64,000 bases of DNA from Eledone cirrhosa (taxonomy: Eukaryota): NCBI GenBank assembly GCA_964016885.1, contig OZ024740.1:167772001-167836000 (forward strand), written 5' to 3'. Both the position numbers and the translations under genes were made by a program. The notes beneath the pieces are model-generated. The model was not told the origin of the DNA. It saw only the letters and a list, made by a program, of their open reading frames with translations, and did not search any database. Shown here one piece after another: positions 8,881 to 63,142 of this stretch (the first letter of the stretch is position 1; every line of letters begins with the position of its first letter).

Positions 8881-10493
8881 AATTGGGATTCGAAAATTTT
8901 GTAGAGATCCTTTTAGCGACGGACCAGCAAGGTAGTCTGGGGCTGTACGGTGTACTAAAGCAATTTTCGCGGCTCGTAAAATTATCCACACTGTTATTTG
9001 TATATGAGATATTTACCCCGGAAGGATTAAGTGCAAACTCGACCCTTGAATTCAGAACCGCATTTTTTCTGACGCTCTACTGATTTTGCCAATCATGGTC
9101 ATCAACTAGTATTATTATTCAGTTATCATAATTATGAACTACTATGCGCTACACATCTCCTAAGATGGTTTTATCATACCCTCGGATTGACGCAAGTTTT
9201 GTCGGTGCAATTTTGTTGATTGTGAATAAACTACTTCATAAGGTGGTAGAACTCAAGAAAGGAATATCCCTAGCAATTTAAAAAACAAAAATAATTGTTT
9301 CTAATTCAAAAATAATTAAATCTATTACATCGACACCAGTCTTTGACTGATACAGTAACTTATCATCCGCCAAAGAATCTTTAAAACAAAATCAAACAAA
9401 TAAATATTGTATATTTTGTCATAATGTCTGGTGAAAATATGATGAATTAAAAGAAAATTTTCGCCAGGAATATTTAGAAATTTAGCCGAAAATTTCAAGG
9501 ACAATCAATGTAAAGCCATTTAAAAGATGTTAGTAAAACAGACACAATAAAGATTCTGATTTTGTACATATTCATTTTTTATGGATGTATTTGAAGGTCG
9601 GATCAGTGCTCAGGACTTTGGCAGGCCTTTCGAAACTACTGAAACTTATGGGGGGGGGGGGGTTAATATTGAACATTAAATATCTGTAAATTAACGACTC
9701 AAGACAAAACGACGGCAGGGAAGAAATTCCAGAAATTCTCCCGGTTAAAACTAAGTACGATTAAGCATATTAGTAATTACGTAGCCCATGACATGGACAA
9801 CAACAATATGTTTAACGAGAAGTGGTGATAAAGTGTGTTTGGGGTGATAGGGTGAAGGCAATATGCAACTAGCTAGTTCTGATGAAATTATAATTCATAT
9901 TAAAATAACTCAGAAAATAAGCTTCTATTAAAATATTTCTATTTGCTATAGTTTACCAATATGTAGAATTAGCTACAAAAAAAAATTAGACAGAAAGCTT
10001 ACTCTAGCTAGGCATTAAATTGATTGAGAAATAAAGAGAAAGTTCGTTTATACTTCCTGATATTGATTTTTGCACGAACGAAAATATAGAAAAAATATAA
10101 TTTATTTCCCATTTATTTATTATTATCATTAACATGATAAAAATAATATCCTCGTTCAATTCATTTCTTGTTCCAAGACACATATTTATTACACAATAAT
10201 AGATTATATTCTCTATGGAAATTGCAATGTGTATTTTTTATTATATGTCTTGTCATTATTCGTATTTATATCGAATGACAAGGGCTAACGTTATATATAT
10301 AATTTATCTATGTAGAATATCACAAACTATTGTTGAGAAGTATTGTTCAGTATCTACTAACATTGATAAGTAAACTATATACTTTGGCCAATCATCGTAG
10401 TACGGTGTAATTCCATGTATCTAAAATATAGAGATTGAAGATTCACGGAGAATTATATCAATATATATCGGTAAAGCATGGAACAAATTACAT

Positions 10494-10982
10494 TGTCAGC
10501 TTATCTCCCTGTGTTTGTTGAAAAAAGAAGTAAGTGACATAGTCACTACTTTAAAACAATAGCGTAAGGTCTTCAAAATGCTTTTAACTAGGCATACAGT
10601 GTATTGCCAAATACACTATATATACATTCATATATACATCGCTATTTCACAGCACCAATTCTAATTTTCAATTTTGCTGGACCGGCAACCGCTCTGTATA
10701 ATCAGTTCCTGATTATTACTGGAATTCTATAAGAATCCAACATTCATAATTTTCAACAGACAAGGGGAGTGCTAAGCTCTGAGGAATACCAACAGTATGA
10801 AACAGAGATCTGTCAGCTTATCTCCCTTTGTTTGTTGAAAAAAGAAGTAAGTGACATAGTCACTACTTTAAAACAATAGCGTAAGGTCTTCAAAATGCTT
10901 TTAATTAAGCATACAGTGTATTGCCAAATACACTATATATACATTCATATATGCATCGCTATTTCAGAGCACCAATTCTAAT
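10494..10982 (+). mobile_element. Partial-tandem HHR-bearing unit (period 317 bp), Penelope-pLTR/retrozyme-like
   Basis: 10494-10664 is repeated at 10811-10982, followed by (TA)n; an HHR spans the junction. Confidence 0.75.
10773..10820 (+). ncRNA. Type I hammerhead ribozyme
   Basis: TAAGCT-CTGAGGA-ATAC(CAACA)GTAT-GAAA-CAG(AGAT)CTG-TC^AGCTTA: intact core, all three stems, GUC site. Confidence 0.85.
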
Positions 10983-11799
10983 ATATATATATATTAAAAT
11001 AATAGATTGAAGTTCAAGCAAAGAATTGCTGCTTTCACCCTTAATGGTAAGCTCCAGAATCCAAAGAACTGGTGGTAGCGTGTGTCACAAACAGTTTATA
11101 GGAGATCTCATGCGAATGTTTGTGAGGGAGCTTAGATTCTAATATTCTGTAAGGTTGTGCTACGTCTGAGATTTTGGAAATGAGAGATCGTAATGATATT
11201 TCGTGGGCTGTGGGCAAGTAAATGACGATGGAATTATGTAGGAAGTGAGGAAAAAGACTGATAGAAGTATCATGAGAAGTAAAAAAGTATGGGAGGCGGG
11301 GGCGTGATAATCGAAGTGTCAGCATTTCGGAGATATCTAACCTAAAGTGAGCCAATCAATTAACCGAGGTAAAATGAAATGATGAAGAGTTCAAGCAAAG
11401 ACAGACAGGGAAACATAACTGGAAATAGAATAGCAACCCCACTTAGATGAATGAGTTATGGACAAAGTCATACATATGACATCTTTAATTTCAAGTGAGC
11501 GAATTATTTAGCAAGGTGCAGCAGTAGTAAAAGAGTAAAAAGTGCTATAGCAAGGACTACTTATTAGATATAATTAAAATAAGAATAACTGAGATACCAA
11601 GTGTTGCAATATTTGCTTTTAACTTTAGTATAAATCTTCACGCGTCAGTATTTCCGTTCAGTTACTGTTCTTGATCATTAGTAGGATTACTCTCTTTTAT
11701 TTCCTTTTATCTATTTATTATTACATTTTATTTTATTTTATTTTTGGGGACCACAAATACCCGGAGAGAAACATACACACATTACCAGACACACATTAC

Positions 11800-16010: not shown

Positions 16011-16119
16011 TTATTAAATAACAGATTAAAGTTTAAGCAAAGAATCGGTGCTTTCACCCTTAACGGGATCTTTAGGAGATCCCGTTTTCTTTGCTTAAAC
16101 TTTAATCTATTATTTAATA
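16011..16119. repeat. Fold-back hairpin between (TA)n tracts; same family as 10993-11046
   Basis: TATTAAATAACAGATTAAAGTTTAAGCAAAGAA pairs with TTCTTTGCTTAAACTTTAATCTATTATTTAATA, with an inner AACGGGATCT/AGATCCCGTT stem. Confidence 0.8.
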
Positions 16120-16135
16120 TATATATAAATATATA

Positions 16136-25709: not shown

Positions 25710-25850
25710 AAATAAATCACATTCTTTTAAATCATATATTTTAGAGTTGATAGAGTGAGTACTATAAGCTAATAGGTCGATATACATATAGCTTATAGTA
25801 CTCACTCTATCAACTCTAAAATATATGATTTAAAAGAATGTGATTTATTT
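25710..25850. repeat. Perfect inverted repeat, 62-bp arms with a 17-nt loop
   Basis: 25710-25771 is the reverse complement of 25789-25850. Confidence 0.9.
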
Positions 25851-27181: not shown

Positions 27182-27307
27182 AAGTTTTATTTAAATTGTT
27201 GGGTTACAACGAGTAAATATTTATAACTGATATAAAAGCACTCAACAAGTATTTGGAGTATATTTACGATATTAAATAAATGGAAACTATATTTATAAAA
27301 CCATATT

Positions 27308-27371
27308 TATTTCATTATATATTTCAGGGATATCATATTAAAAATATGGTATGCCTTCTTCAGACAAAATA
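27308..27371 (-). ncRNA. Type I hammerhead ribozyme (Penelope pLTR, sense to the GIY-YIG ORF)
   Basis: TATTTTGT-CTGAAGA-long stem II (AGG..CATATT TTT AATATG..CCT)-GAAA-TATAT-A^ATGAAATA. Confidence 0.75.
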
Positions 27372-27625
27372 CAATATAAACAGTCTTATAAATAGATAGA
27401 TTTGACATACCTTACAACTTCAACTTCCATTTAAAAAGTTGATTTGGTAGTGAAAATTGTTAGGGACAGTTATAAAAAGAAAGAAAGAAAAAAAGCGAAG
27501 AAAAAGAAGAAATGCATGCAACTAAATAGAGAGAGATAGATATAGAGAGATAGATAGAGAGAAGAAATTCATGTAAAGAAACAGAGAGAGAGATAGAGAG
27601 AGAAAAACCACAGAGGGAGATAGAT

Positions 27626-27657
<32 letters not shown>

Positions 27658-28762
27658 AAAAATAGAGAGAGATAGATATAGATAGAGATAGAGAGAAAGA
27701 AAATAGGTAGTTGGGCACCAGTTGAATGACGTATCAATGATATATTTATTTATTTATTTATTTGTTTAGTTCTAGTATTAAGGTAGAGAGAGATATATGT
27801 GGTTAGGAGAGAAAACAGCCGTTACATAGAGAGAAAAGAAAAATATCCAGATATAAACGAGGCAGATTTAAAACATTATGTTTCATCAATGTAAAAATAT
27901 CAATTCGTATGAATTAGGTATTATAATGTAAATATCAGTATTCATGAATGAGACACGTATCAATAATGTGTGAAAAATAATGATCATATGTCTAGTTTAA
28001 AATTCCTAGGTTTATATCAGAGTTGAGTTAAAAAACTGAGATAAAAAAACTGAGATAAAAAAAACTGAGATAAAAAACTAAGATAAAAAACTTCAAAAAA
28101 ATTGAAATACATAAGTATATATGCACTTTCATGAAAAAAGAAAAAGAAAAAGAAAATAGAAGGTTATCCCAGATTCGATACTATAGACTTCCATGTGAAT
28201 TTACGTGATCAACTCTGCAAATTCCTATTTCACATGAAAACATTCTCATTGTGCTATAAAAATTCTAGTATACATATATGTGTACATACACACAAATATA
28301 TATAGAATCTACATTAATTTTAACAATACTATTCTTGTCTTTACTCTACATGATTATCGTTCAAGCATAAATAGACAACAGATATCAATATATCAATAAA
28401 AATATCAAAAAATTAAAAAATATTAAAAATAAAACACAGTATGCCCCGCAAATCAACCCTTCAAAATTAATTGACAATATATTGCCAAGTTCATTATAAG
28501 CATCAGAATCAAAAGCAAACAAAACCAAAATTATTTACCAAATCCTGTCTAGCAGAAATCATTCCAAAAGTTTAGGATACCCATTTGATCTACAGATGGT
28601 CTTATATTTATTATAGAAGTTTATCTAGTGTAAAATTTATTCGATATATTTGGAGCATCAGCTTTTAGGGTAGTTTAATTATTCATGAAGAATGTTTAAA
28701 AAAAAGAAATCGAAAGATTTATCGGCGAGTTTCATAAATAATTATAAATCAAAGTAAATATA

Positions 28763-29184
28763 CTACATTTTAAATTTATATTTATATTTAAAAGTTGAGC
28801 AACTGAATAAATTTGTCCGTAAATTAAGGGAATTTTTAGATTTGAGTATAAAGAATATCTCCTCCGCGCAGAGGTCACATGTCTCAGAGGATGAATTAAA
28901 AGGAATCCCTCTTGAGACTATATTCCAAGCCGTCGAATATCCAACGTTATCATGCTTAAGTTGCCAGAGTAAGCCTGATAGTGATGTTGAAGATTTTTTG
29001 CTTGGATCTGTGAAAGAATTCTTGTGGTTATTATAGCGAAGTTTAAATTCTGTCGAGGTGGAACCAACATAGTTAAAAGAATTTAAGTCCGTTTTAACAT
29101 TACAGTTGTACATTATATTTTTAACTAAGCAATTGTTATTTAACGGACATTTAGATCTATCTCTACAGTTACATTTGTTTACTT
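28763..29184 (-). pseudogene. Penelope-like GIY-YIG endonuclease domain (N-terminally truncated)
   Basis: CNCRDRSKCPLNNNCLVKNIMY...NYVGSTSTEFKLRYNNHKNSF...CDLCAEE..ILK...LNLRT, the typical PLE linker plus GIY-YIG. Confidence 0.9.
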
Positions 29185-29431
29185 ATTGATATTTTTACAT
29201 TGATGAAACATAATGTTTTAAATCTGCCTCGTTTATATCTGGATATTTTTCTTTTCTCTCTATGTAACGGCTGTTTTCTCTCCTAACCACATATATCACT
29301 CTCTACCTTAATACTAGAACTAAATAAATAAATAAATAAATAAATATATCATTGATACGTCATTCAACTGGTGCCCAACTACCTATTTTCTTTCTCTCTA
29401 TCTCTATCTATATCTATCTCTCTCTATTTTT

Positions 29432-29465
<34 letters not shown>

Positions 29466-29723
29466 CTATCTATCTCCCTCTGTGTTTTTTCTCTCTCTAT
29501 CTATCTCTCTCTGTTTCTTTACATGAATTTCTTCTCTCTATCTATCTCTCTATATCTATCTCTCTCTATTTAGTTGCATGCATTTCTTCTTTTTCTTCGC
29601 TTTTTTTCTTTCTTTCTTTTTATAACTGTCCCTAACATTTTTCACTACCAAATCAACTTTTTAAATGGAAGTTGAAGTTGTAAGGTATGTCAAATCTATC
29701 TATTTATAAGACTGTTTATATTG

Positions 29724-29789
29724 TATTTTGTCTGAAGAAGGCATACCATATTTTTAATATGATATCCCTGAAATATATATAATGAAATA
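29724..29789 (+). ncRNA. Type I hammerhead ribozyme (inverted pLTR copy)
   Basis: Same as 27308-27371, with palindromic stem III TATATA and an AUA site. Confidence 0.75.
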
Positions 29790-29829
29790 AATATGGTTTT
29801 ATAAATATAGTTTCCATTTATTTAATATC

Positions 29830-29950
<121 letters not shown>

Positions 29951-39310: not shown

Positions 39311-39396
<86 letters not shown>

Positions 39397-39445
39397 AAAT
39401 AAAGTTAAATAAAAGTCAAATGATTAAAATTTAGCTTCGTTTATT

Positions 39446-39500
39446 ACTGCTATATATATTTCAGTGACAGCCATCTTTGGCTGTGACCTCTTCAGGCAGT
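39446..39500 (-). ncRNA. Type I hammerhead ribozyme
   Basis: Exact inverted copy of 39639-39693. Confidence 0.85.
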
Positions 39501-39638
39501 TTGAATTAGTATGGTATAGTCATATGACTCCAGTTCCTCAGTGAATTAACAACCCAACAAGGAACTGGGTATATCAGAGTATTGACAATATTATACACCT
39601 AAACAACATATGTACTTGTCTATACCATACTAATTCAA

Positions 39639-39693
39639 ACTGCCTGAAGAGGTCACAGCCAAAGATGGCTGTCACTGAAATATATATAGCAGT
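39639..39693 (+). ncRNA. Type I hammerhead ribozyme
   Basis: ACTGC-CTGAAGA-GGTCACAGCC(AAAGAT)GGCTGTCACT-GAAA-TATATA-TA^GCAGT. Confidence 0.85.
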
Positions 39694-40126
39694 AATAAAC
39701 GAAGCTAAATTTTAATCATTTGACTTTTATTTAACTTTATTTTACACTACTCCGGAGTAACTAAACCAACCTGCGCACTTCGTCGAGTGCTCCAGCCTGC
39801 ATACTAAGGTGTTGATATACAACCAACATAAACTCAAAATATATATATATTTATATATATATATTCGTTACTGATTTTCGATAAAATCAATATCTTATTA
39901 TTCGATGTTTGAAAAAGCTGACAGGCGACAAGGAAGTGTAATTTCTGTTCTTTAATTATTGTGTATGCATAACAGGAAGCTTCAGAGAAAAAGTTATCCT
40001 TCATATTTGTGTGCGAGTACAGCAACAACATTCAGCAAACTTCTAGTACATTCATGTGTAAGCCTAAATATCTTAAACACGATCTCAAAAGATTTATATA
40101 TATATATATAGGTGTATATATAAGTG

Positions 40127-42104: not shown

Positions 42105-42153
42105 ACACCTTTAATCGATTTTCGAATCTAATTGGATCCTCTTCAGAAGGCGT
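42105..42153 (-). ncRNA. Type I hammerhead ribozyme (minimal, palindromic stem III)
   Basis: ACGCCTT-CTGAAGA-GGATC(CAATTA)GATTC-GAAA-ATCGAT-TA^AAGGTGT. Confidence 0.8.
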
Positions 42154-42418: not shown

Positions 42419-42915
42419 GGAAAAAATGAAACGACATTTCATTTCCCACTTTTAGTACGGCTGTTACTTAAATATAAGTATGTACACGTACATACATATA
42501 TGTATACAGACGTATAGTAGTATGTATATATATATACATACATGCACACATATATATATGTACGTATGGATTCACCGAACATTTATTATAATGCTCGGTG
42601 TGTTTGTAAACAAACATCCCGTATTAAGCCGTAGTGTCTAGCAACCATCGTTGCTCGTTTGTTCAACACTGATAAAGGAACGCTGTACTAGTTTCAAGCT
42701 TATTAGCTATCGTCAGCAACGTATACCTTCCTGCCAGATTGTTGAACGTATATACTTACCTTATGCATATTAACGGCTGAGTAGCCCAATTTGCATATCG
42801 AGTGGGTTAATCGGCCGGGTGCACCGAAAACGATTAACGGAAAAAATGAAACGTAATTTCATTTCCCACTCTTAGTACGGCTGTTACTTAAATATATGTA
42901 TGTACAAGTATGTAT
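42416..42915 (-). mobile_element. Partial-tandem HHR-bearing unit (period 420 bp) inside (TA)n
   Basis: AACGGAAAAAATGAAACG...GTACGGCTGTTACTTAAATATA at 42416 and 42836; HHR between them. Confidence 0.75.
42680..42722 (-). ncRNA. Type I hammerhead ribozyme (minimal)
   Basis: ACGTTG-CTGACGA-tAGCT(AATA)AGCTt-GAAA-CTAG-TA^CAGCGT. Confidence 0.8.
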
Positions 42916-46608: not shown

Positions 46609-47798
<1,190 letters not shown>

Positions 47799-47909
47799 TT
47801 CCAGTTCCTCAGTGAAATAACAACCCGACCAGGAACTGGGCATATCAGAGTATTGACAATATTATACACCTCAACAACATATGTACTTGTCTATACCACA
47901 CTAATTCGG

Positions 47910-47964
47910 ACTGCCTGAAGAGGTCACAGCCAAAGATGGCTGTCACTGAAATATATATAGCACC
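47910..47964 (+). ncRNA. Type I hammerhead ribozyme, stem I partly mutated
   Basis: Same core as 39639-39693, but the 3' arm is GCACC instead of GCAGT; within family fragment 47799-48011. Confidence 0.7.
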
Positions 47965-48005
47965 AATAAACGAAGCTAAATTTTAAACATTTGACTTTTT
48001 ATTTA

Positions 48006-48032
<27 letters not shown>

Positions 48033-48044
<12 letters not shown>

Positions 48045-51000
48045 GATCGAGTATCGAAAAATCGGCGCACGAGTTAACGAAAAACGAAATCCGATATGAG
48101 CGGCAGAGGGCTCAATAATTCAGATGAATCAGAGCTATAACTATCGTTAAAATACCGTCACATATAGAACAAGTCTACAATCAACCATACGATTTAAAAT
48201 CGATAAAGGAAGATTCGGGCCAAACAGATAAAAAATATCAATAAAACAATACGTCAATAATTTAAATGAATGTAAAATCATACCCGGACCCACTAGAAAG
48301 GTGTTAAATCTAGCTTCATGGGTTTCTGTAAATCCTTAGACAGTACTCTATCAGCTCACATATAAATATAAAAGCCTACTAGAATAAGTGGAATGGAGTT
48401 TACGTTGTCAACGAGTTTTATCCTGGCGGCAAAGGAGTCAACTAGCGGTGAAAAACGCACATGGCATTAGATAGGGGAGATGACCCCTATATCCGCGAAA
48501 ATAATTCGAGTGAATGTGGAAATACACATATCGAATTAGAGTGCTCAATAGACATGTTAAAATAAAACAAAAGCTATTCATCACTCAATAGAATCGACAA
48601 AATATGAGCAATAAAATTAACTGGTGGATAGCTATGTCCAGAGCTAAATATATTAGAAAGATCGAGTATCGAAAAATCGGCGCACGAGTTAACGAAAAAC
48701 GAAATCCGATATGAGCGGCAGAGGGCTCAATAATTCAGATGAATCAGAGCTATAACTATCGTTAAAATACCGTCACATATAGAACAAGTCTACAATCAAC
48801 CATACGATTTAAAATCGATAAAGGAAGATTCGGGCCAAACAGATAAAAAATATCAATAAAACAATACGTCAATAATTTAAATGAATGTAAAATCATACCC
48901 GGACCCACTAGAAAGGTGTTAAATCTAGCTTCATGGGTTTCTGTAAATCCTTAGACAGTACTCTATCAGCTCACATATAAATATAAAAGCCTACTAGAAT
49001 AAGTGGAATGGAGTTTACGTTGTCAACGAGTTTTATCCTGGCGGCAAAGGAGTCAACTAGCGGTGAAAAACGCACATGGCATTAGATAGGGGAGATGACC
49101 CCTATATCCGCGAAAATAATTCGAGTGAATGTGGAAATACACATATCGAATTAGAGTGCTCAATAGACATGTTAAAATAAAACAAAAGCTATTCATCACT
49201 CAATAGAATCGACAAAATATGAGCAATAAAATTAACTGGTGGATAGCTATGTCCAGAGCTAAATATATTAGAAAGATCGAGTATCGAAAAATCGGCGCAC
49301 GAGTTAACGAAAAACGAAATCCGATATGAGCGGCAGAGGGCTCAATAATTCAGATGAATCAGAGCTATAACTATCGTTAAAATACCGTCACATATAGAAC
49401 AAGTCTACAATCAACCATACGATTTAAAATCGATAAAGGAAGATTCGGGCCAAACAGATAAAAAATATCAATAAAACAATACGTCAATAATTTAAATGAA
49501 TGTAAAATCATACCCGGACCCACTAGAAAGGTGTTAAATCTAGCTTCATGGGTTTCTGTAAATCCTTAGACAGTACTCTATCAGCTCACATATAAATATA
49601 AAAGCCTACTAGAATAAGTGGAATGGAGTTTACGTTGTCAACGAGTTTTATCCTGGCGGCAAAGGAGTCAACTAGCGGTGAAAAACGCACATGGCATTAG
49701 ATAGGGGAGATGACCCCTATATCCGCGAAAATAATTCGAGTGAATGTGGAAATACACATATCGAATTAGAGTGCTCAATAGACATGTTAAAATAAAACAA
49801 AAGCTATTCATCACTCAATAGAATCGACAAAATATGAGCAATAAAATTAACTGGTGGATAGCTATGTCCAGAGCTAAATATATTAGAAAGATCGAGTATC
49901 GAAAAATCGGCGCACGAGTTAACGAAAAACGAAATCCGATATGAGCGGCAGAGGGCTCAATAATTCAGATGAATCAGAGCTATAACTATCGTTAAAATAC
50001 CGTCACATATAGAACAAGTCTACAATCAACCATACGATTTAAAATCGATAAAGGAAGATTCGGGCCAAACAGATAAAAAATATCAATAAAACAATACGTC
50101 AATAATTTAAATGAATGTAAAATCATACCCGGACCCACTAGAAAGGTGTTAAATCTAGCTTCATGGGTTTTTGTAAATCCTTAGACAGTACTCTATCAGC
50201 TCACATATAAATATAAAAGCCTACTAGAATAAGTGGAATGGAGTTTACGTTGTCAACGAGTTTTATCCTGGCGGCAAAGGAGTCAACTAGCGGTGAAAAA
50301 CGCACATGGCATTAGATAGGGGAGATGACCCCTATATCCGCGAAAATAATTCGAGTGAATGTGGAAATACACATATCGAATTAGAGTGCTCAATAGACAT
50401 GTTAAAATAAAACAAAAGCTATTCATCACTCAATAGAATCGACAAAATATGAGCAATAAAATTAACTGGTGGATAGCTATGTCCAGAGCTAAATATATTA
50501 GAAAGATCGAGTATCGAAAAATCGGCGCACGAGTTAACGAAAAACGAAATCCGATATGAGCGGCAGAGGGCTCAATAATTCAGATGAATCAGAGCTATAA
50601 CTATCGTTAAAATACCGTCACATATAGAACAAGTCTACAATCAACCATACGATTTAAAATCGATAAAGGAAGATTCGGGCCAAACAGATAAAAAATATCA
50701 ATAAAACAATACGTCAATAATTTAAATGAATGTAAAATCATACCCGGACCCACTAGAAAGGTGTTAAATCTAGCTTCATGGGTTTCTGTAAATCCTTAGA
50801 CAGTACTCTATCAGCTCACATATAAATATAAAAGCCTACTAGAATAAGTGGAATGGAGTTTACGTTGTCAACGAGTTTTATCCTGGCGGCAAAGGAGTCA
50901 ACTAGCGGTGAAAAACGCACATGGCATTAGATAGGGGAGATGACCCCTATATCCGCGAAAATAATTCGAGTGAATGTGGAAATACACATATCGAATTAGA

Positions 51001-54000
51001 GTGCTCAATAGACATGTTAAAATAAAACAAAAGCTATTCATCACTCAATAGAATCGACAAAATATGAGCAATAAAATTAACTGGTGGATAGCTATGTCCA
51101 GAGCTAAATATATTAGAAAGATCGAGTATCGAAAAATCGGCGCACGAGTTAACGAAAAACGAAATCCGATATGAGCGGCAGAGGGCTCAATAATTCAGAT
51201 GAATCAGAGCTATAACTATCGTTAAAATACCGTCACATATAGAACAAGTCTACAATCAACCATACGATTTAAAATCGATAAAGGAAGATTCGGGCCAAAC
51301 AGATAAAAAATATCAATAAAACAATACGTCAATAATTTAAATGAATGTAAAATCATACCCGGACCCACTAGAAAGGTGTTAAATCTAGCTTCATGGGTTT
51401 CTGTAAATCCTTAGACAGTACTCTATCAGCTCACATATAAATATAAAAGCCTACTAGAATAAGTGGAATGGAGTTTACGTTGTCAACGAGTTTTATCCTG
51501 GCGGCAAAGGAGTCAACTAGCGGTGAAAAACGCACATGGCATTAGATAGGGGAGATGACCCCTATATCCGCGAAAATAATTCGAGTGAATGTGGAAATAC
51601 ACATATCGAATTAGAGTGCTCAATAGACATGTTAAAATAAAACAAAAGCTATTCATCACTCAATAGAATCGACAAAATATGAGCAATAAAATTAACTGGT
51701 GGATAGCTATGTCCAGAGCTAAATATATTAGAAAGATCGAGTATCGAAAAATCGGCGCACGAGTTAACGAAAAACGAAATCCGATATGAGCGGCAGAGGG
51801 CTCAATAATTCAGATGAATCAGAGCTATAACTATCGTTAAAATACCGTCACATATAGAACAAGTCTACAATCAACCATACGATTTAAAATCGATAAAGGA
51901 AGATTCGGGCCAAACAGATAAAAAATATCAATAAAACAATACGTCAATAATTTAAATGAATGTAAAATCATACCCGGACCCACTAGAAAGGTGTTAAATC
52001 TAGCTTCATGGGTTTCTGTAAATCCTTAGACAGTACTCTATCAGCTCACATATAAATATAAAAGCCTACTAGAATAAGTGGAATGGAGTTTACGTTGTCA
52101 ACGAGTTTTATCCTGGCGGCAAAGGAGTCAACTAGCGGTGAAAAACGCACATGGCATTAGATAGGGGAGATGACCCCTATATCCGCGAAAATAATTCGAG
52201 TGAATGTGGAAATACACATATCGAATTAGAGTGCTCAATAGACATGTTAAAATAAAACAAAAGCTATTCATCACTCAATAGAATCGACAAAATATGAGCA
52301 ATAAAATTAACTGGTGGATAGCTATGTCCAGAGCTAAATATATTAGAAAGATCGAGTATCGAAAAATCGGCGCACGAGTTAACGAAAAACGAAATCCGAT
52401 ATGAGCGGCAGAGGGCTCAATAATTCAGATGAATCAGAGCTATAACTATCGTTAAAATACCGTCACATATAGAACAAGTCTACAATCAACCATACGATTT
52501 AAAATCGATAAAGGAAGATTCGGGCCAAACAGATAAAAAATATCAATAAAACAATACGTCAATAATTTAAATGAATGTAAAATCATACCCGGACCCACTA
52601 GAAAGGTGTTAAATCTAGCTTCATGGGTTTCTGTAAATCCTTAGACAGTACTCTATCAGCTCACATATAAATATAAAAGCCTACTAGAATAAGTGGAATG
52701 GAGTTTACGTTGTCAACGAGTTTTATCCTGGCGGCAAAGGAGTCAACTAGCGGTGAAAAACGCACATGGCATTAGATAGGGGAGATGACCCCTATATCCG
52801 CGAAAATAATTCGAGTGAATGTGGAAATACACATATCGAATTAGAGTGCTCAATAGACATGTTAAAATAAAACAAAAGCTATTCATCACTCAATAGAATC
52901 GACAAAATATGAGCAATAAAATTAACTGGTGGATAGCTATGTCCAGAGCTAAATATATTAGAAAGATCGAGTATCGAAAAATCGGCGCACGAGTTAACGA
53001 AAAACGAAATCCGATATGAGCGGCAGAGGGCTCAATAATTCAGATGAATCAGAGCTATAACTATCGTTAAAATACCGTCACATATAGAACAAGTCTACAA
53101 TCAACCATACGATTTAAAATCGATAAAGGAAGATTCGGGCCAAACAGATAAAAAATATCAATAAAACAATACGTCAATAATTTAAATGAATGTAAAATCA
53201 TACCCGGACCCACTAGAAAGGTGTTAAATCTAGCTTCATGGGTTTCTGTAAATCCTTAGACAGTACTCTATCAGCTCACATATAAATATAAAAGCCTACT
53301 AGAATAAGTGGAATGGAGTTTACGTTGTCAACGAGTTTTATCCTGGCGGCAAAGGAGTCAACTAGCGGTGAAAAACGCACATGGCATTAGATAGGGGAGA
53401 TGACCCCTATATCCGCGAAAATAATTCGAGTGAATGTGGAAATACACATATCGAATTAGAGTGCTCAATAGACATGTTAAAATAAAACAAAAGCTATTCA
53501 TCACTCAATAGAATCGACAAAATATGAGCAATAAAATTAACTGGTGGATAGCTATGTCCAGAGCTAAATATATTAGAAAGATCGAGTATCGAAAAATCGG
53601 CGCACGAGTTAACGAAAAACGAAATCCGATATGAGCGGCAGAGGGCTCAATAATTCAGATGAATCAGAGCTATAACTATCGTTAAAATACCGTCACATAT
53701 AGAACAAGTCTACAATCAACCATACGATTTAAAATCGATAAAGGAAGATTCGGGCCAAACAGATAAAAAATATCAATAAAACAATACGTCAATAATTTAA
53801 ATGAATGTAAAATCATACCCGGACCCACTAGAAAGGTGTTAAATCTAGCTTCATGGGTTTCTGTAAATCCTTAGACAGTACTCTATCAGCTCACATATAA
53901 ATATAAAAGCCTACTAGAATAAGTGGAATGGAGTTTACGTTGTCAACGAGTTTTATCCTGGCGGCAAAGGAGTCAACTAGCGGTGAAAAACGCACATGGC

Positions 54001-54919
54001 ATTAGATAGGGGAGATGACCCCTATATCCGCGAAAATAATTCGAGTGAATGTGGAAATACACATATCGAATTAGAGTGCTCAATAGACATGTTAAAATAA
54101 AACAAAAGCTATTCATCACTCAATAGAATCGACAAAATATGAGCAATAAAATTAACTGGTGGATAGCTATGTCCAGAGCTAAATATATTAGAAAGATCGA
54201 GTATCGAAAAATCGGCGCACGAGTTAACGAAAAACGAAATCCGATATGAGCGGCAGAGGGCTCAATAATTCAGATGAATCAGAGCTATAACTATCGTTAA
54301 AATACCGTCACATATAGAACAAGTCTACAATCAACCATACGATTTAAAATCGATAAAGGAAGATTCGGGCCAAACAGATAAAAAATATCAATAAAACAAT
54401 ACGTCAATAATTTAAATGAATGTAAAATCATACCCGGACCCACTAGAAAGGTGTTAAATCTAGCTTCATGGGTTTCTGTAAATCCTTAGACAGTACTCTA
54501 TCAGCTCACATATAAATATAAAAGCCTACTAGAATAAGTGGAATGGAGTTTACGTTGTCAACGAGTTTTATCCTGGCGGCAAAGGAGTCAACTAGCGGTG
54601 AAAAACGCACATGGCATTAGATAGGGGAGATGACCCCTATATCCGCGAAAATAATTCGAGTGAATGTGGAAATACACATATCGAATTAGAGTGCTCAATA
54701 GACATGTTAAAATAAAACAAAAGCTATTCATCACTCAATAGAATCGACAAAATATGAGCAATAAAATTAACTGGTGGATAGCTATGTCCAGAGCTAAATA
54801 TATTAGAAAGATCGAGTATCGAAAAATCGGCGCACGAGTTAACGAAAAACGAAAACCGATATGAGCGGCAGAGGGCTCAATAATTCAGATGAATCAGAGC
54901 TATAACTATCGTTAAAATA
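48033..54919. repeat. Tandem array, 11.2 copies of a 615-bp unit, flanked by (TA)n
   Basis: GAAAGATCGAG recurs at 48041, 48656, 49271 ... 54806 (step 615). Only two substitutions noticed (50171, 54855). No ORF of 60 aa or more. Confidence 0.98.
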
Positions 54920-56865: not shown

Positions 56866-57750
56866 GAGCATTAAGCCTGTCGGACCGATTTAGTTTGACC
56901 GTAAGGCTTAAGAAGTCGAATAAAAGTGGAAGCGGATTTATCTTGAACTAGCCAGTGAGTGCCATTTTACTACCTAGTCCTTTCGCTATCAAGCCATTTT
57001 CCCATTTAGCCATCTAGAAACATTTAACCTAGCTATCCAAACTATCCGAACAATCCGCCTTACCAATATTGTAAGCTGGCTGGCCTGTCAGCTTATCCAG
57101 GATCGTAATGGTTTCAATAAATTTTCTATTATGTATTCACATGTATTCCCCCGTCCCAAAGAAAGAAGCCTGAACCAACTCCTCTAAACTCCGTCACGTT
57201 AATTCGTTCTGTATGAAATTAGATTTCAGTTGCCAACGTCGATTAAATGTGTAAAATCAGTAACTGGGTCAATAAAAATCCGTGTCGTTACTCATTCAGA
57301 GTACGTCTTGACTTGGTATAATTAATCTTTTCCTTATAGCTAACTAAATGGACTTTCTTCGGCATATCGTGCAATGTCTTTAGCTCACCGTCATCACCCA
57401 AATAATATACATCTTTCTTCGGTTTTTTGTTCTATCCTACCCAAACCAGAAATGGCATTGCTCTTTTCGGTATCGCTCTCCATTTCCCCACACTCACACG
57501 GACATCATTGGCTAGTGTTAAATAGTTTAGGTGTAAGCTAAGACTTTGTTATAAAAGATCCTGCTAGTGGCTCATGTGGTTGGAGTAAGTTATGGTGGTG
57601 GTGGTGGTGGTGGTGGTTTCCGTCCTTTTTTTTGGCTTAGCGTGTGTGTCTGTCAATGTTGTCGACGGGGATGATAGCAATGTCTACGGTGGTGACACTG
57701 GCGGTGGCAGGTGGATGATATATATTTAGATATACCTGAATAGGGAGTTA

Positions 57751-57786
<36 letters not shown>

Positions 57787-57859
57787 ATCATATGTATATA
57801 TATATATATATATATAAGAGGGTGTTAAAGTTTGCTTGAAGCATTGTGAAATGTGTAAA

Positions 57860-58371
57860 ATACGTAGTTAAGAAAGCCACAACAATGCAGAGGGGAATCT
57901 CGAGGTAGGAAGTGAATGATAGATAGGAGAAACAGGTGAAAGTGAAAATTGAGAGAGACAAAGATGAAAACAAAACAAAGGTAGAAGGGTTACCGTAGTG
58001 AAGATTTAATCCCAATATTTCGGGCTCACGCCCATCAACGGGGGAAAAGTTCCAAAAGGCGGGGAACAGGCCAAGCGGAGAAAGTTGTGATGTCGTTAAG
58101 ACAGGAATGCCGTTATGACGGCATTCCTGTCTTAACGACATCACAACTTTCTCCGCTTGGCCTGTTCCCCGCCTTTTGGAACTTTTCCCCCGTTGATGGG
58201 CGTGAGCCCGAAATATTGGGATTAAATCTTCACTACGGTAACCCTTCTACCTTTGTTTTGTTTTCATCTTTGTCTCTCTCAATTTTCACTTTCACCTGTT
58301 TCTCCTATCTATCATTCACTTCCTACCTCGAGATTCCCCTCTGCATTGTTGTGGCTTTCTTAACTACGTAT
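57860..58371. repeat. Perfect palindrome, 254-bp arms with a 4-nt loop, in (TA)n context
   Basis: Centre CGT-TATG-ACG at 58111-58120; ORFs on the two strands are identical except at the loop. Confidence 0.95.
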
Positions 58372-58389
58372 ATATATATATATACATAT

Positions 58390-58444
<55 letters not shown>

Positions 58445-58454
<10 letters not shown>

Positions 58455-58455
58455 C

Positions 58456-58516
<61 letters not shown>

Positions 58517-60884: not shown

Positions 60885-61870
60885 TTTTTTTTTGTTTTTT
60901 TTTTGTTTTTTTCTTATCGTAGGCGCCTGAGGATTACCCTCAGTAGCGGTAGACTGGCGTGTGGGAGTCGCACGAGCTCATCCATGCTGGAGCCGAGTTG
61001 GTGGTGATAACAATCCACCATCAAGGCCGGACATCTCAGCCAAAGATGTTCGGAGGATTCTTCTTCCTCTCCGCACAGACGACATGTGTTGATTTCCGCT
61101 TGGCCGATCATATGAAGCCATCTCCTTAATGACATTTGATGTCCTCTGCGGAAGCGGACGAGATGTTTCCTATCTGCTTTGGAGAGAGTTTGCTCACTCT
61201 CTTCATTTGGGTGGCGGCTAAAGACTGATTGTAGACGTTGATGCTGGATCGGTGGTGGGCGAAATTCCCGGCGGGTAGCGGCATCGATTGAACTTTTCAG
61301 TTGAGTAGATGCTGAGCCTTGTTTCGCCTGGGCGTCCGCCAGTTCATTCCCGGGACCCAGACAGCTGCTAAGGTTCTCCCCTTTGTGATGTTGTTAGTGA
61401 TCCCTTGCAGTTCGGTAATGAAAGGGTCATGGGGGAAGGGGTTGTTGACTGCTTGAACCAGCGACTTGCAGTCACAGATGACATTGGAGGACTCCCAGCT
61501 GGTGTCTGCCTGTAACCCTAGGCGGGCTTGTTTGATGCAATTCTTTCGGAATGAAAGGAACTGATACGAGCGCCCGTGGGAGAGTGCCACTCGTGAGCTA
61601 CCTCTTCATTTTTGATGATTACGAGACCGGCACCGCCATTGGTTGTACCGTCGGATGTTGATCCATCTGTATACACGCAAATGTCGACCGGGGGGAGTGT
61701 TGATAGATGATCCAGTGCCGCTTTAAGTTGTAGTGCTACTGGCATTGATTTGTTCACCGGGGTAAAGGTAGCAGGGATTGGTGCTGGTAATTCCCACGGC
61801 GGCTTCTTATGTGGTAGTTGGGTGTCTGTTGTCGAGTGTATGCCAAGAGGATCAAGGGCTGGCAGCTGTC
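60885..61870 (-). mobile_element. 5'-truncated RNase H-bearing LINE (I-group/Ingi-like) with A-rich tail
   Basis: RNase H motifs VYTDGS...GGAG...SSFHSE, ICDCKSLV, VWVPG; knuckle CRLCGEEEESSEHLWLRC; stop at 60914 followed by poly(A). Confidence 0.85.
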
Positions 61871-62044
61871 TACATCTGTTGTGGTTGTTGTTACTGATGT
61901 TGTTGTTTTTGTTGTTTTTGATGTTTGTGTTGTTTTTGCTTAGCCATAGGGTAAGCTCTGACGGAGAAAACCAATGATCGAGCGCATTTTATTCATGTTC
62001 ATCGCGTGTATGTTTTTCAGACATATAGGACTGCACTAAATAAT

Positions 62045-62221: not shown

Positions 62222-62818
62222 GACTGCATTAAATAATGTCTCCTTTCATTTAAGACGGTGAGTTATTATTTGATGAAGATACGTGCCTCTGGAGAAGTGT
62301 TATAGAGGTTCCCTAGTTCGACTTGATTTTCTGTTAATTCCGTAGCAATAGCTGATGTGAAATATATTTTCCTCTATGATGTTAGAAACAGATAAATAAT
62401 AGATAGTCTTTTTTATAGAATGAACTGAATTCGGCACCAGATTAGTCACTCATTCATTCCACCACAGGCTGGTTGTGGCCCAAAGGACGGCCATTGAAGT
62501 TTTCTCTGTATTCTTCAAACCTTTTTCAAATGTTTATATGTAAGATATCATATACTACATATGAGCGTCATTAGCAAATCTATAAAATATACTCAAGTAT
62601 GAAATTACAAACAGAAAAGTCTATCCTCAAGCAAATTCAAAATGAACAATTATAGAAAAGTACCGATTTATATCTATAGGGTCCAATCTTTCGAGAAATA
62701 ATCTGTAGACACAGGCCAACATTGGCGTTACAATATAGAAGTTCAGTATTCTGTTGAAATCAACCAATTTCGACACTCCATATCGCCAATATAAATGTAT
62801 ATATATAACGAAACAAAA

Positions 62819-62928
62819 GACTCGCGTATAATCCTGTAATTAAATGAGCTCAAAGGAAAGAGTTTTCCTAAAGTGCCCAGGAAACTCTTTCCTTTGAACT
62901 CATTTAATTACAGGATTATACGCGAGTC
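62819..62928. repeat. Inverted repeat with ~50-bp arms
   Basis: GACTCGCGTATAATCCTGTAATTAAATGAG...CTCATTTAATTACAGGATTATACGCGAGTC. Confidence 0.9.
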
Positions 62929-63142
62929 CTTTGCCACGTTATTTTACTTGATATTCGCTCCTTACGTTCTCTCTGCTGTCGAGCACCATAAATTGAACAG
63001 TATGGGCTGCGATCTCTAGCAGCTTGCTCTGTTCATGCCACCGGTTACTGCCTCGCGCACGTATTTCCCTTATATTTACACGTGCTACAAGTGGTTTACT
63101 TTAGTTCTCTCTCTCTAGTAGTGCGGACAATATCGGTCTCTC

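Follow-up and report, generated by a model that had tools for sequence, protein, structure and literature searches.

A 1.54-unit copy of a non-coding 317-nt hammerhead repeat family, probably written by a Penelope-like enzyme

An insert at positions 10494-10982 of the window, the 64,000-nucleotide stretch of repeat-rich, animal-type DNA analysed here, begins close to the equivalent of the place where its own hammerhead ribozyme is predicted to cut. The locus therefore raises the question of what kind of RNA the insert was copied from, and whether cleavage by the ribozyme determined where the copying stopped.

Architecture of the insert and its hammerhead

The insert contains a 172-nt direct repeat (10494-10665 and 10811-10982), the copies of which were 97% identical with five substitutions (10511, 10588, 10591, 10636 and 10650 in left-copy coordinates) and no indels. 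The copies are spaced 317 nt apart, which gives the period of a 317-nt unit. The preliminary description had proposed a tandem unit of this length and the period held, though the insert is 489 nt or 1.54 units long, has one complete core and is not an array. On the forward strand it opens with an upstream partial unit (10494-10665), composed of TGTC and the first 168 nt past the equivalent of the cut and without the catalytic core, and closes with the downstream copy of the same segment (10811-10982), which ends at the recurrent 3' end of the family, 168 nt past the cut. A single unit on the forward strand, taken from cut-equivalent to cut (10498-10814), is 317 nt long with 35% GC and a longest ATG frame of 28 codons, and this falls within the approximately 150-450 nt and under 50% GC of the non-coding units of retrozymes. 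The left copy starts at 10494, which is 4 nt before the cut-equivalent (10497/10498), as had been described.

A (TA)n run of approximately 13 nt (10982-10994) follows the insert, in agreement with the earlier account, and being absent from the unit is likely both target and primer. The right flank (10995-11047) is the end of a different high-copy repeat, designated X, of which another copy is located at 16012-16130. Repeat X also ends at (TA)n, its 16-kb copy is an inverted pair, and its minus strand features a hairpin, GAAA and a CAGAAGA core-like word in the read consensus, a possible variant hammerhead. The left flank (10422-10493) is single-copy and consists of 33 nt resembling the right flank followed by 39 nt that separate these from the insert. 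The left junction is not an assembly artefact, since it is bridged by a contig of run X1 (10200-10526, 2 differences); no contig bridging the right junction was present among the pieces listed.

The resemblance between the flanks (10422-10454 and 10995-11027) extended to 26 of 35 matching columns, a score reached by one of 2674 control windows. It was rejected as a target-site duplication because, at approximately 26% divergence, it can hardly be as young as the internal repeats. The longest exact match between the flanks was 9 nt of TA type located 25 nt from the edge and was not credible as a duplication, reconstruction of the target site from the flanks failed, and no clean duplication was found at the locus. 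A continuation of the upstream part of repeat X into the left flank was also rejected, as 140 of 1000 shuffles scored equally well.

The degenerate copy of the right flank within the left flank indicates that a local rearrangement may have happened, and the repeat copies differ by 2.9%. Both would suit a history in which a monomer inserted first and the repeat arose from a later DNA duplication, an unequal crossover or a collapsed satellite with no circle involved, and local tandem amplification has been proposed in the available text of a recent preprint (10.64898/2026.07.22.740005). Such a history is nevertheless distinctly unlikely, as the repeat is without indels and the right end coincides with the recurrent (TA)n end of the family, which would not be expected from random duplication or deletion.

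The hammerhead is of type I and is located on the forward strand at 10773-10820, with a cut predicted between 10814 and 10815. Stem I is formed by 10773-10778 and 10815-10820, the core word CUGAGGA lies at 10779-10785 and GAAA at 10799-10802, stem II is 10786-10789/10795-10798 (4 bp with a 5-nt loop), stem III is 10802-10805/10810-10813 (4 bp with a 4-nt loop) and GUC lies at 10812-10814. The CUGANGA, GAAA and NUH elements of the core were all present together with three stems, stem I being open. Beyond a 3+1 internal loop stem I continues for 20 further pairs (10750-10769/10822-10841), 26 bp in total, and the extended hairpin of 6 + 20 bp on the forward strand (10750-10841), recognised from the repeat and fold analysis and from read variants, encloses the core.

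An equally good motif (stems I, II and III of at least 6, 4 and 4 pairs) occurred in none of 60 order-3 Markov copies of the window. Fold z-scores were -5.7 for the 101-nt hammerhead region (0 of 200 shuffles) and -6.2 for the 317-nt monomer folded as a linear molecule (0 of 100 shuffles). The predicted 317-nt circle was 63% paired, and the active hammerhead fold was approximately 2 kcal/mol above the ensemble in read-through RNA and 2.1 in the circle; a stable predicted circle that leaves the ribozyme fold accessible is a further feature of retrozymes. The Rfam hammerhead model was unmatched at the gathering score and at E<=10, and the identification therefore draws on the core pattern together with the fold and with variation within the family. 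Core pattern and fold both bear out the canonical hammerhead motif at 10773-10820 of the preliminary description, with its predicted cut at 10814/10815, and no second core was found on the minus strand of the insert.

Because only one core is present, no circle would come from the locus itself, and its RNA is predicted to undergo a single cut of the read-through transcript, with release of neither monomer nor circle. A type III layout, in which the single core would cut at the upstream TGTC and free a monomer, can be drawn as a fold but was rejected as its predicted share was negligible (7e-6 for the 5' product, 6e-6 for nascent RNA and 2e-10 for the full-length RNA, relative to 0.035 for the downstream site, all computed without tertiary contacts). 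Stem III (10802-10813) is nearly self-complementary, with a duplex at -12.2 versus a hairpin at -1.8 kcal/mol, and intermolecular pairing of stem III could, on these predicted energies, allow a dimeric hammerhead.

The repeat family in public reads and its 3' end

In run X1, 7075 contigs mapped and summed depth was 10,630-617,857 over the unit versus mostly 12.5-12.9 on the flanks, and at the left edge the depth climbed from approximately 21 to more than 25,000 between the bins that meet at 10495/10496. Summed depth contrast is not equal to copy number, and is that of a sequence with many dispersed genomic copies; it suggests that the 317-nt family has hundreds, and probably thousands, of them. 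Forty-two contigs of a run carrying another organism label also matched the unit. The exact 31-nt core was found at 0 loci in metagenome contigs, a scan of viral contigs for relatives gave 0, and the one metagenome locus with a degenerate core (L001) was dismissed as a chance match in unrelated sequence without stem II. Joints from 10983 to 10672 showed that in other copies the unit runs on, while a contig with two cores was not found among those listed. Opposite-strand joints inside the unit were also found in other copies, and these fit Penelope-type inverted insertions; no inverted arm was present at 10494-10982.

Variants reaching at least 4% were collected over 10765-10895 (131 positions), and the best 40 of 42 variants fell on 35 positions. 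None of the 12 core positions was among the 35 variable positions listed (P=0.02) and the free N7 position varied. Partner changes affected the two outer pairs of stem II, 10786 A>G being accompanied by 10798 T>C, and 10787 T>C by 10797 A>G (33 and 24 reads), and in the long stem I 10756 A>G (335 of 474 X9 reads) matched 10835 T>C (554 of 824). This suggests that the stem variants are compensatory, on frequencies that are marginal and unphased, and a conserved core with paired changes in the stems shows signs of selection on the ribozyme. At three of the five differences between the repeat copies (10591, 10650 and 10953) one copy carried a letter rare in the family, which fits copies that were identical at birth and drifted after insertion. 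With a type I hammerhead, a non-coding unit and a high copy number, the assignment to a retrozyme-type unit made in the preliminary description was upheld.

The best-supported loose end in X1 (top of the 6 rows shown) was the TA run behind 10994 with 99 contigs, and run X4 had one contig with loose letters behind 10994; over four runs there were 849 further loose-end rows beyond those listed. The family accordingly has the constant internal 3' end, joined to AT-rich or (TA)n sequence, of Penelope-type insertions, and no second fixed end was seen among the loose-end rows listed. The (TA)n is best read as target rather than as a tail of the RNA, since where the TA run begins the unit itself reads TTTCAATT. 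The equivalent of the 3' end, 10665, is located in a 9-nt unpaired run (10661-10669), the second-longest in the predicted circle, and within a predicted 20-nt hairpin loop on the forward strand (10655-10674) that is a candidate for the internal site where reverse transcription begins. PMC11167929 describes a Penelope-like enzyme that nicks AT-rich DNA and initiates copying at an internal stem loop of its RNA, located downstream of the hammerhead, and Penelope-like elements of the Hydra clade, whose mark is a CxCX5C linker, insert into (TA)n (PMC8557442).

Within the window, a broken frame on the minus strand (28766-29182) was closest, among named Atlas clusters, to GIY-YIG (score 0.94, 31% of members) and has a CxCX5C linker seen by eye; Pfam returned no family for this endonuclease remnant. 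Flanking the remnant are inverted repeats (27259-27904 and 29185-29838) that are 98% identical and end at TA runs, and each holds a hammerhead-like motif, at 27363 on the minus and at 29732 on the plus strand. Within the window the 317-nt unit showed no link in sequence to an autonomous element, and no frame for a reverse transcriptase with GIY-YIG, as in an autonomous Penelope-like element, was found in the unit.

Several other elements were observed in the window. Three copies of a repeat with a hammerhead-like motif (39495 minus, 39644 plus and 47915 plus) are located at 39395-39744 and 47797-48012, two of them forming an inverted pair in a Penelope-type layout. Further hammerhead-like motifs were located on the minus strand at 42120-42146, with stems of 7, 5 and 3 pairs, and at 42692-42716. 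The region 48030-54919 comprises 11.2 head-to-tail copies of a 615-bp unit between TA runs, with 1-2 differences from the first copy, and this array is very young; it had neither the canonical hammerhead order nor an Rfam match, and close to its end a GAAA precedes the core-like word CAGATGA, possibly a reordered hammerhead. Broken non-LTR retrotransposon frames at 45-1078 and 60914-61988 matched zf-RVT (E 2.5e-7 and 2e-4) and weakly RNase H (E 0.012). Long near-palindromic segments at 57718-58495, 25710-25850 and 62805-62942 are possibly more two-armed insertions.

Pseudo-LTRs are described as partial tandems that carry a hammerhead and end at (TA)n (PMC8557442), and the insert could on that ground be the pseudo-LTR of an autonomous Penelope-like element that lost its 5' part, and not a non-coding replicon of its own. 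This is very improbable given that the unit returns to its own start after 317 nt, that no frame exceeds 28 codons and that in the hammerhead stem III is complete and stem I long, while Penelope-type hammerheads are described as minimal in the accessible text of PMC7761336.

The insert is instead probably a 1.54-unit copy of a high-copy non-coding 317-nt family, likely written by a Penelope-like enzyme from a predicted circular or multimeric RNA. By analogy with the tested retrozymes of coral, mussel and axolotl, some copies of the family would likely be transcribed, cleave themselves at GUC and be ligated to 317-nt circles. A Penelope-like enzyme would then likely nick (TA)n DNA and start copying at the fixed loop 168 nt past the cut, and copying would proceed for one full round plus 172 nt, crossing the cleavage junction once and stopping 4 nt beyond it the second time, a stop that was likely an ordinary 5' truncation. 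The two 172-nt copies would afterwards have drifted 2.9% apart. While the recurrent end, the TA run and the lengths were observed, the authorship of a Penelope-like enzyme is likely by analogy with known elements. Its clade may be the Hydra type, which is one candidate; Naiad and Neptune also favour microsatellites in the available text of PMC8557442. The report that eight of nine tested frog elements did not cleave (preprint 10.64898/2026.07.22.740005, in its accessible part) counts against this account.

A copy longer than the unit requires a circular or multimeric RNA template, or else a template jump. The earlier proposal had been that the insert was copied from a self-cleaved or circular RNA of about 317 nt, and its circular part can be kept in this widened form. 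The self-cleaved linear monomer is not the template without a template jump, because the insert of 489 nt exceeds the monomer.

The 5' end and the cleavage site

The preliminary description had further equated the left boundary of the insert with the self-cleavage site, and this was not supported. TGTC (10494-10497) is present upstream of the cut-equivalent and precedes 10498, with a chance of 0.0026 of having come from the composition of the flank, and a circular RNA offers no end at that point. A multimer cleaved upstream would give a stop at 10498; since TGTC was retained, the junction was most likely copied by the enzyme, which stopped just past it. For a single copy the chance of a left edge within 4 nt of the cut is approximately 1.6-2.8%, with p approximately 0.016 for random termination 0-4 nt upstream of it. 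This value is for one copy in a family of probably thousands, and the position of the left edge near the cut is likely chance, the outcome of ordinary 5' truncation.

The same two probabilities, p 0.016 for the position of the edge and p 0.0026 for a TGTC derived from the flank, would also favour an edge set by the ribozyme, whereby a multimer or circle nicked at the cut is held together by the 26-bp stem and the enzyme crosses the nick by 4 nt and falls off. The long stem would, on the predicted fold, keep the cleavage products together, and approximately 63 of 601 X11 reads appear across 10810-10819. We consider a ribozyme-set edge unlikely on the following evidence from the reads.

A weak form of the 5'-end check that had been suggested gave no support. 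The eight 5' loose-end rows listed in X1 and X11 (among the best 12 of 130 rows, with one RAD run; the smallest rows listed had 10 contigs and 101 reads) were at 10806, 10840, 10845 and 10859 in X1 and at 10794, 10840, 10845 and 10859 in X11, and none was at 10811-10815. Of these, 10806 and 10840 are subfamily variants while 10845 and 10859, which have mixed flanks, look like true junctions. The depth step of X11 across the cut was +56 and then +7, no larger than 5-nt steps elsewhere (147, 404 and 219), and subfamilies with a different stem III can cause it. The ten ends of five opposite-strand joints were 17-132 nt from the cut, and none was within 16 nt of it, though the 5' nature of these ends is uncertain; the probability of this would be P=0.03 if 30% of ends lay near the cut. 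These joints exclude 10770/10822, which reflects the inverted repeat of stem I, and four at 11001-11047 in repeat X, and at least 18 further rows exist. Peaks of read ends at 10723/10726 (GAATTC), 10748 and 10903/10906 (AATT) were set aside as library cuts. In PMC11167929, insertion in vitro did not require cleavage, and RNA reads with an end at the cut were not found. Overall the read data gave no sign of a hotspot at the cut site and are compatible with a modest one, X11 being a RAD library in which short overlaps can be missed.

It is doubtful, then, that both ends of the insert record a single reaction, namely Hydra-type priming at (TA)n in the fixed loop, one round of the circle and a nick crossed by 4 nt. 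If true, the ribozyme would set the length of the insertion, 5' ends across the family would cluster immediately upstream of the cut, and the hammerhead would have a new role in Penelope-type transposition, a function described as unclear and left open in the accessible text of PMC8557442 and PMC11167929. A pile-up of 5' ends at the cut would raise the importance of the locus, but none was visible in the data.

Comparison with known systems

The plant LTR retrozymes, which have type III hammerheads in both LTRs and a 4-bp duplication, were excluded as relatives since the hammerhead here is of type I with a single core and no exact duplication. Among the Penelope-like elements, the Anolis Poseidon element PAc (Frangieh et al. 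2024, PMC11167929) resembles the 317-nt family in its type I hammerhead, AT-rich targets and reverse transcription that begins internally, in a stem loop past the cut, a start that is putative for the present family. According to the available text PAc is autonomous with two start sites 111-118 nt into its frame, whereas the 317-nt unit is without a frame and one recurrent end was seen, 168 nt past the cut. The Hydra-clade elements (Craig et al. 2021, PMC8557442) share insertion into (TA)n and canonical hammerheads with the family. As described there they are protein-coding, unlike the unit, and the repeats of the 28766-29182 remnant had no similarity to it.

Hammerheads have been recorded in cephalopods, with 235 Rfam hammerhead-1 loci in the giant squid (PMC6962438, in the part available). 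A literature search for cephalopod retrozymes listed only PMC8557442 with its preprint, PMC10886601 and PMC6962438, and one for crustacean retrozymes listed only PMC7229834 with its preprint; the supplements of PMC7229834 or of the bioRxiv preprint may contain the 317-nt family or its insertion ends. No study of retrozyme insertion sites was among the best 15 literature matches.

The vertebrate non-LTR retrozymes (Li, Clavereau, Pollet 2026, 10.64898/2026.07.22.740005) have units within 51-972 bp, a range that includes the present unit, and the mean unit is 313-342 bp for amphibians, insects and coral. Copies that are single and full-length are frequent among them and a Penelope-like partner has been proposed, in these respects similar to the family described here. 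An active copy is characterised in the accessible text of that preprint by two consecutive complete hammerheads, in contrast to the one core at this locus, and no pseudo-LTR homologue was found here.

The closest likeness is to the non-LTR retrozymes of coral, mussel and axolotl as described by Cervera and de la Pena (2020, PMC7229834). These also have a non-coding head-to-tail unit of 170-400 nt with GC under 50%, a canonical type I hammerhead, a high copy number and a predicted well-paired circle that would leave the ribozyme fold accessible. Differences are that the locus has one core, that cleavage and circles are predicted here, and that the sequence is unrelated as judged by Rfam, the published families having been compared by description alone. 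A fixed 3' end at (TA)n is likewise a feature of the 317-nt family and not one described in the available text of PMC7229834. A Penelope partnership has been proposed for retrozymes (PMC7229834, PMC7761336 and 10.64898/2026.07.22.740005), and the 317-nt family is likely a new metazoan non-LTR retrozyme family mobilised by a Penelope-like enzyme. The finding adds one family to a known class and another Penelope-type 3' end on a retrozyme.
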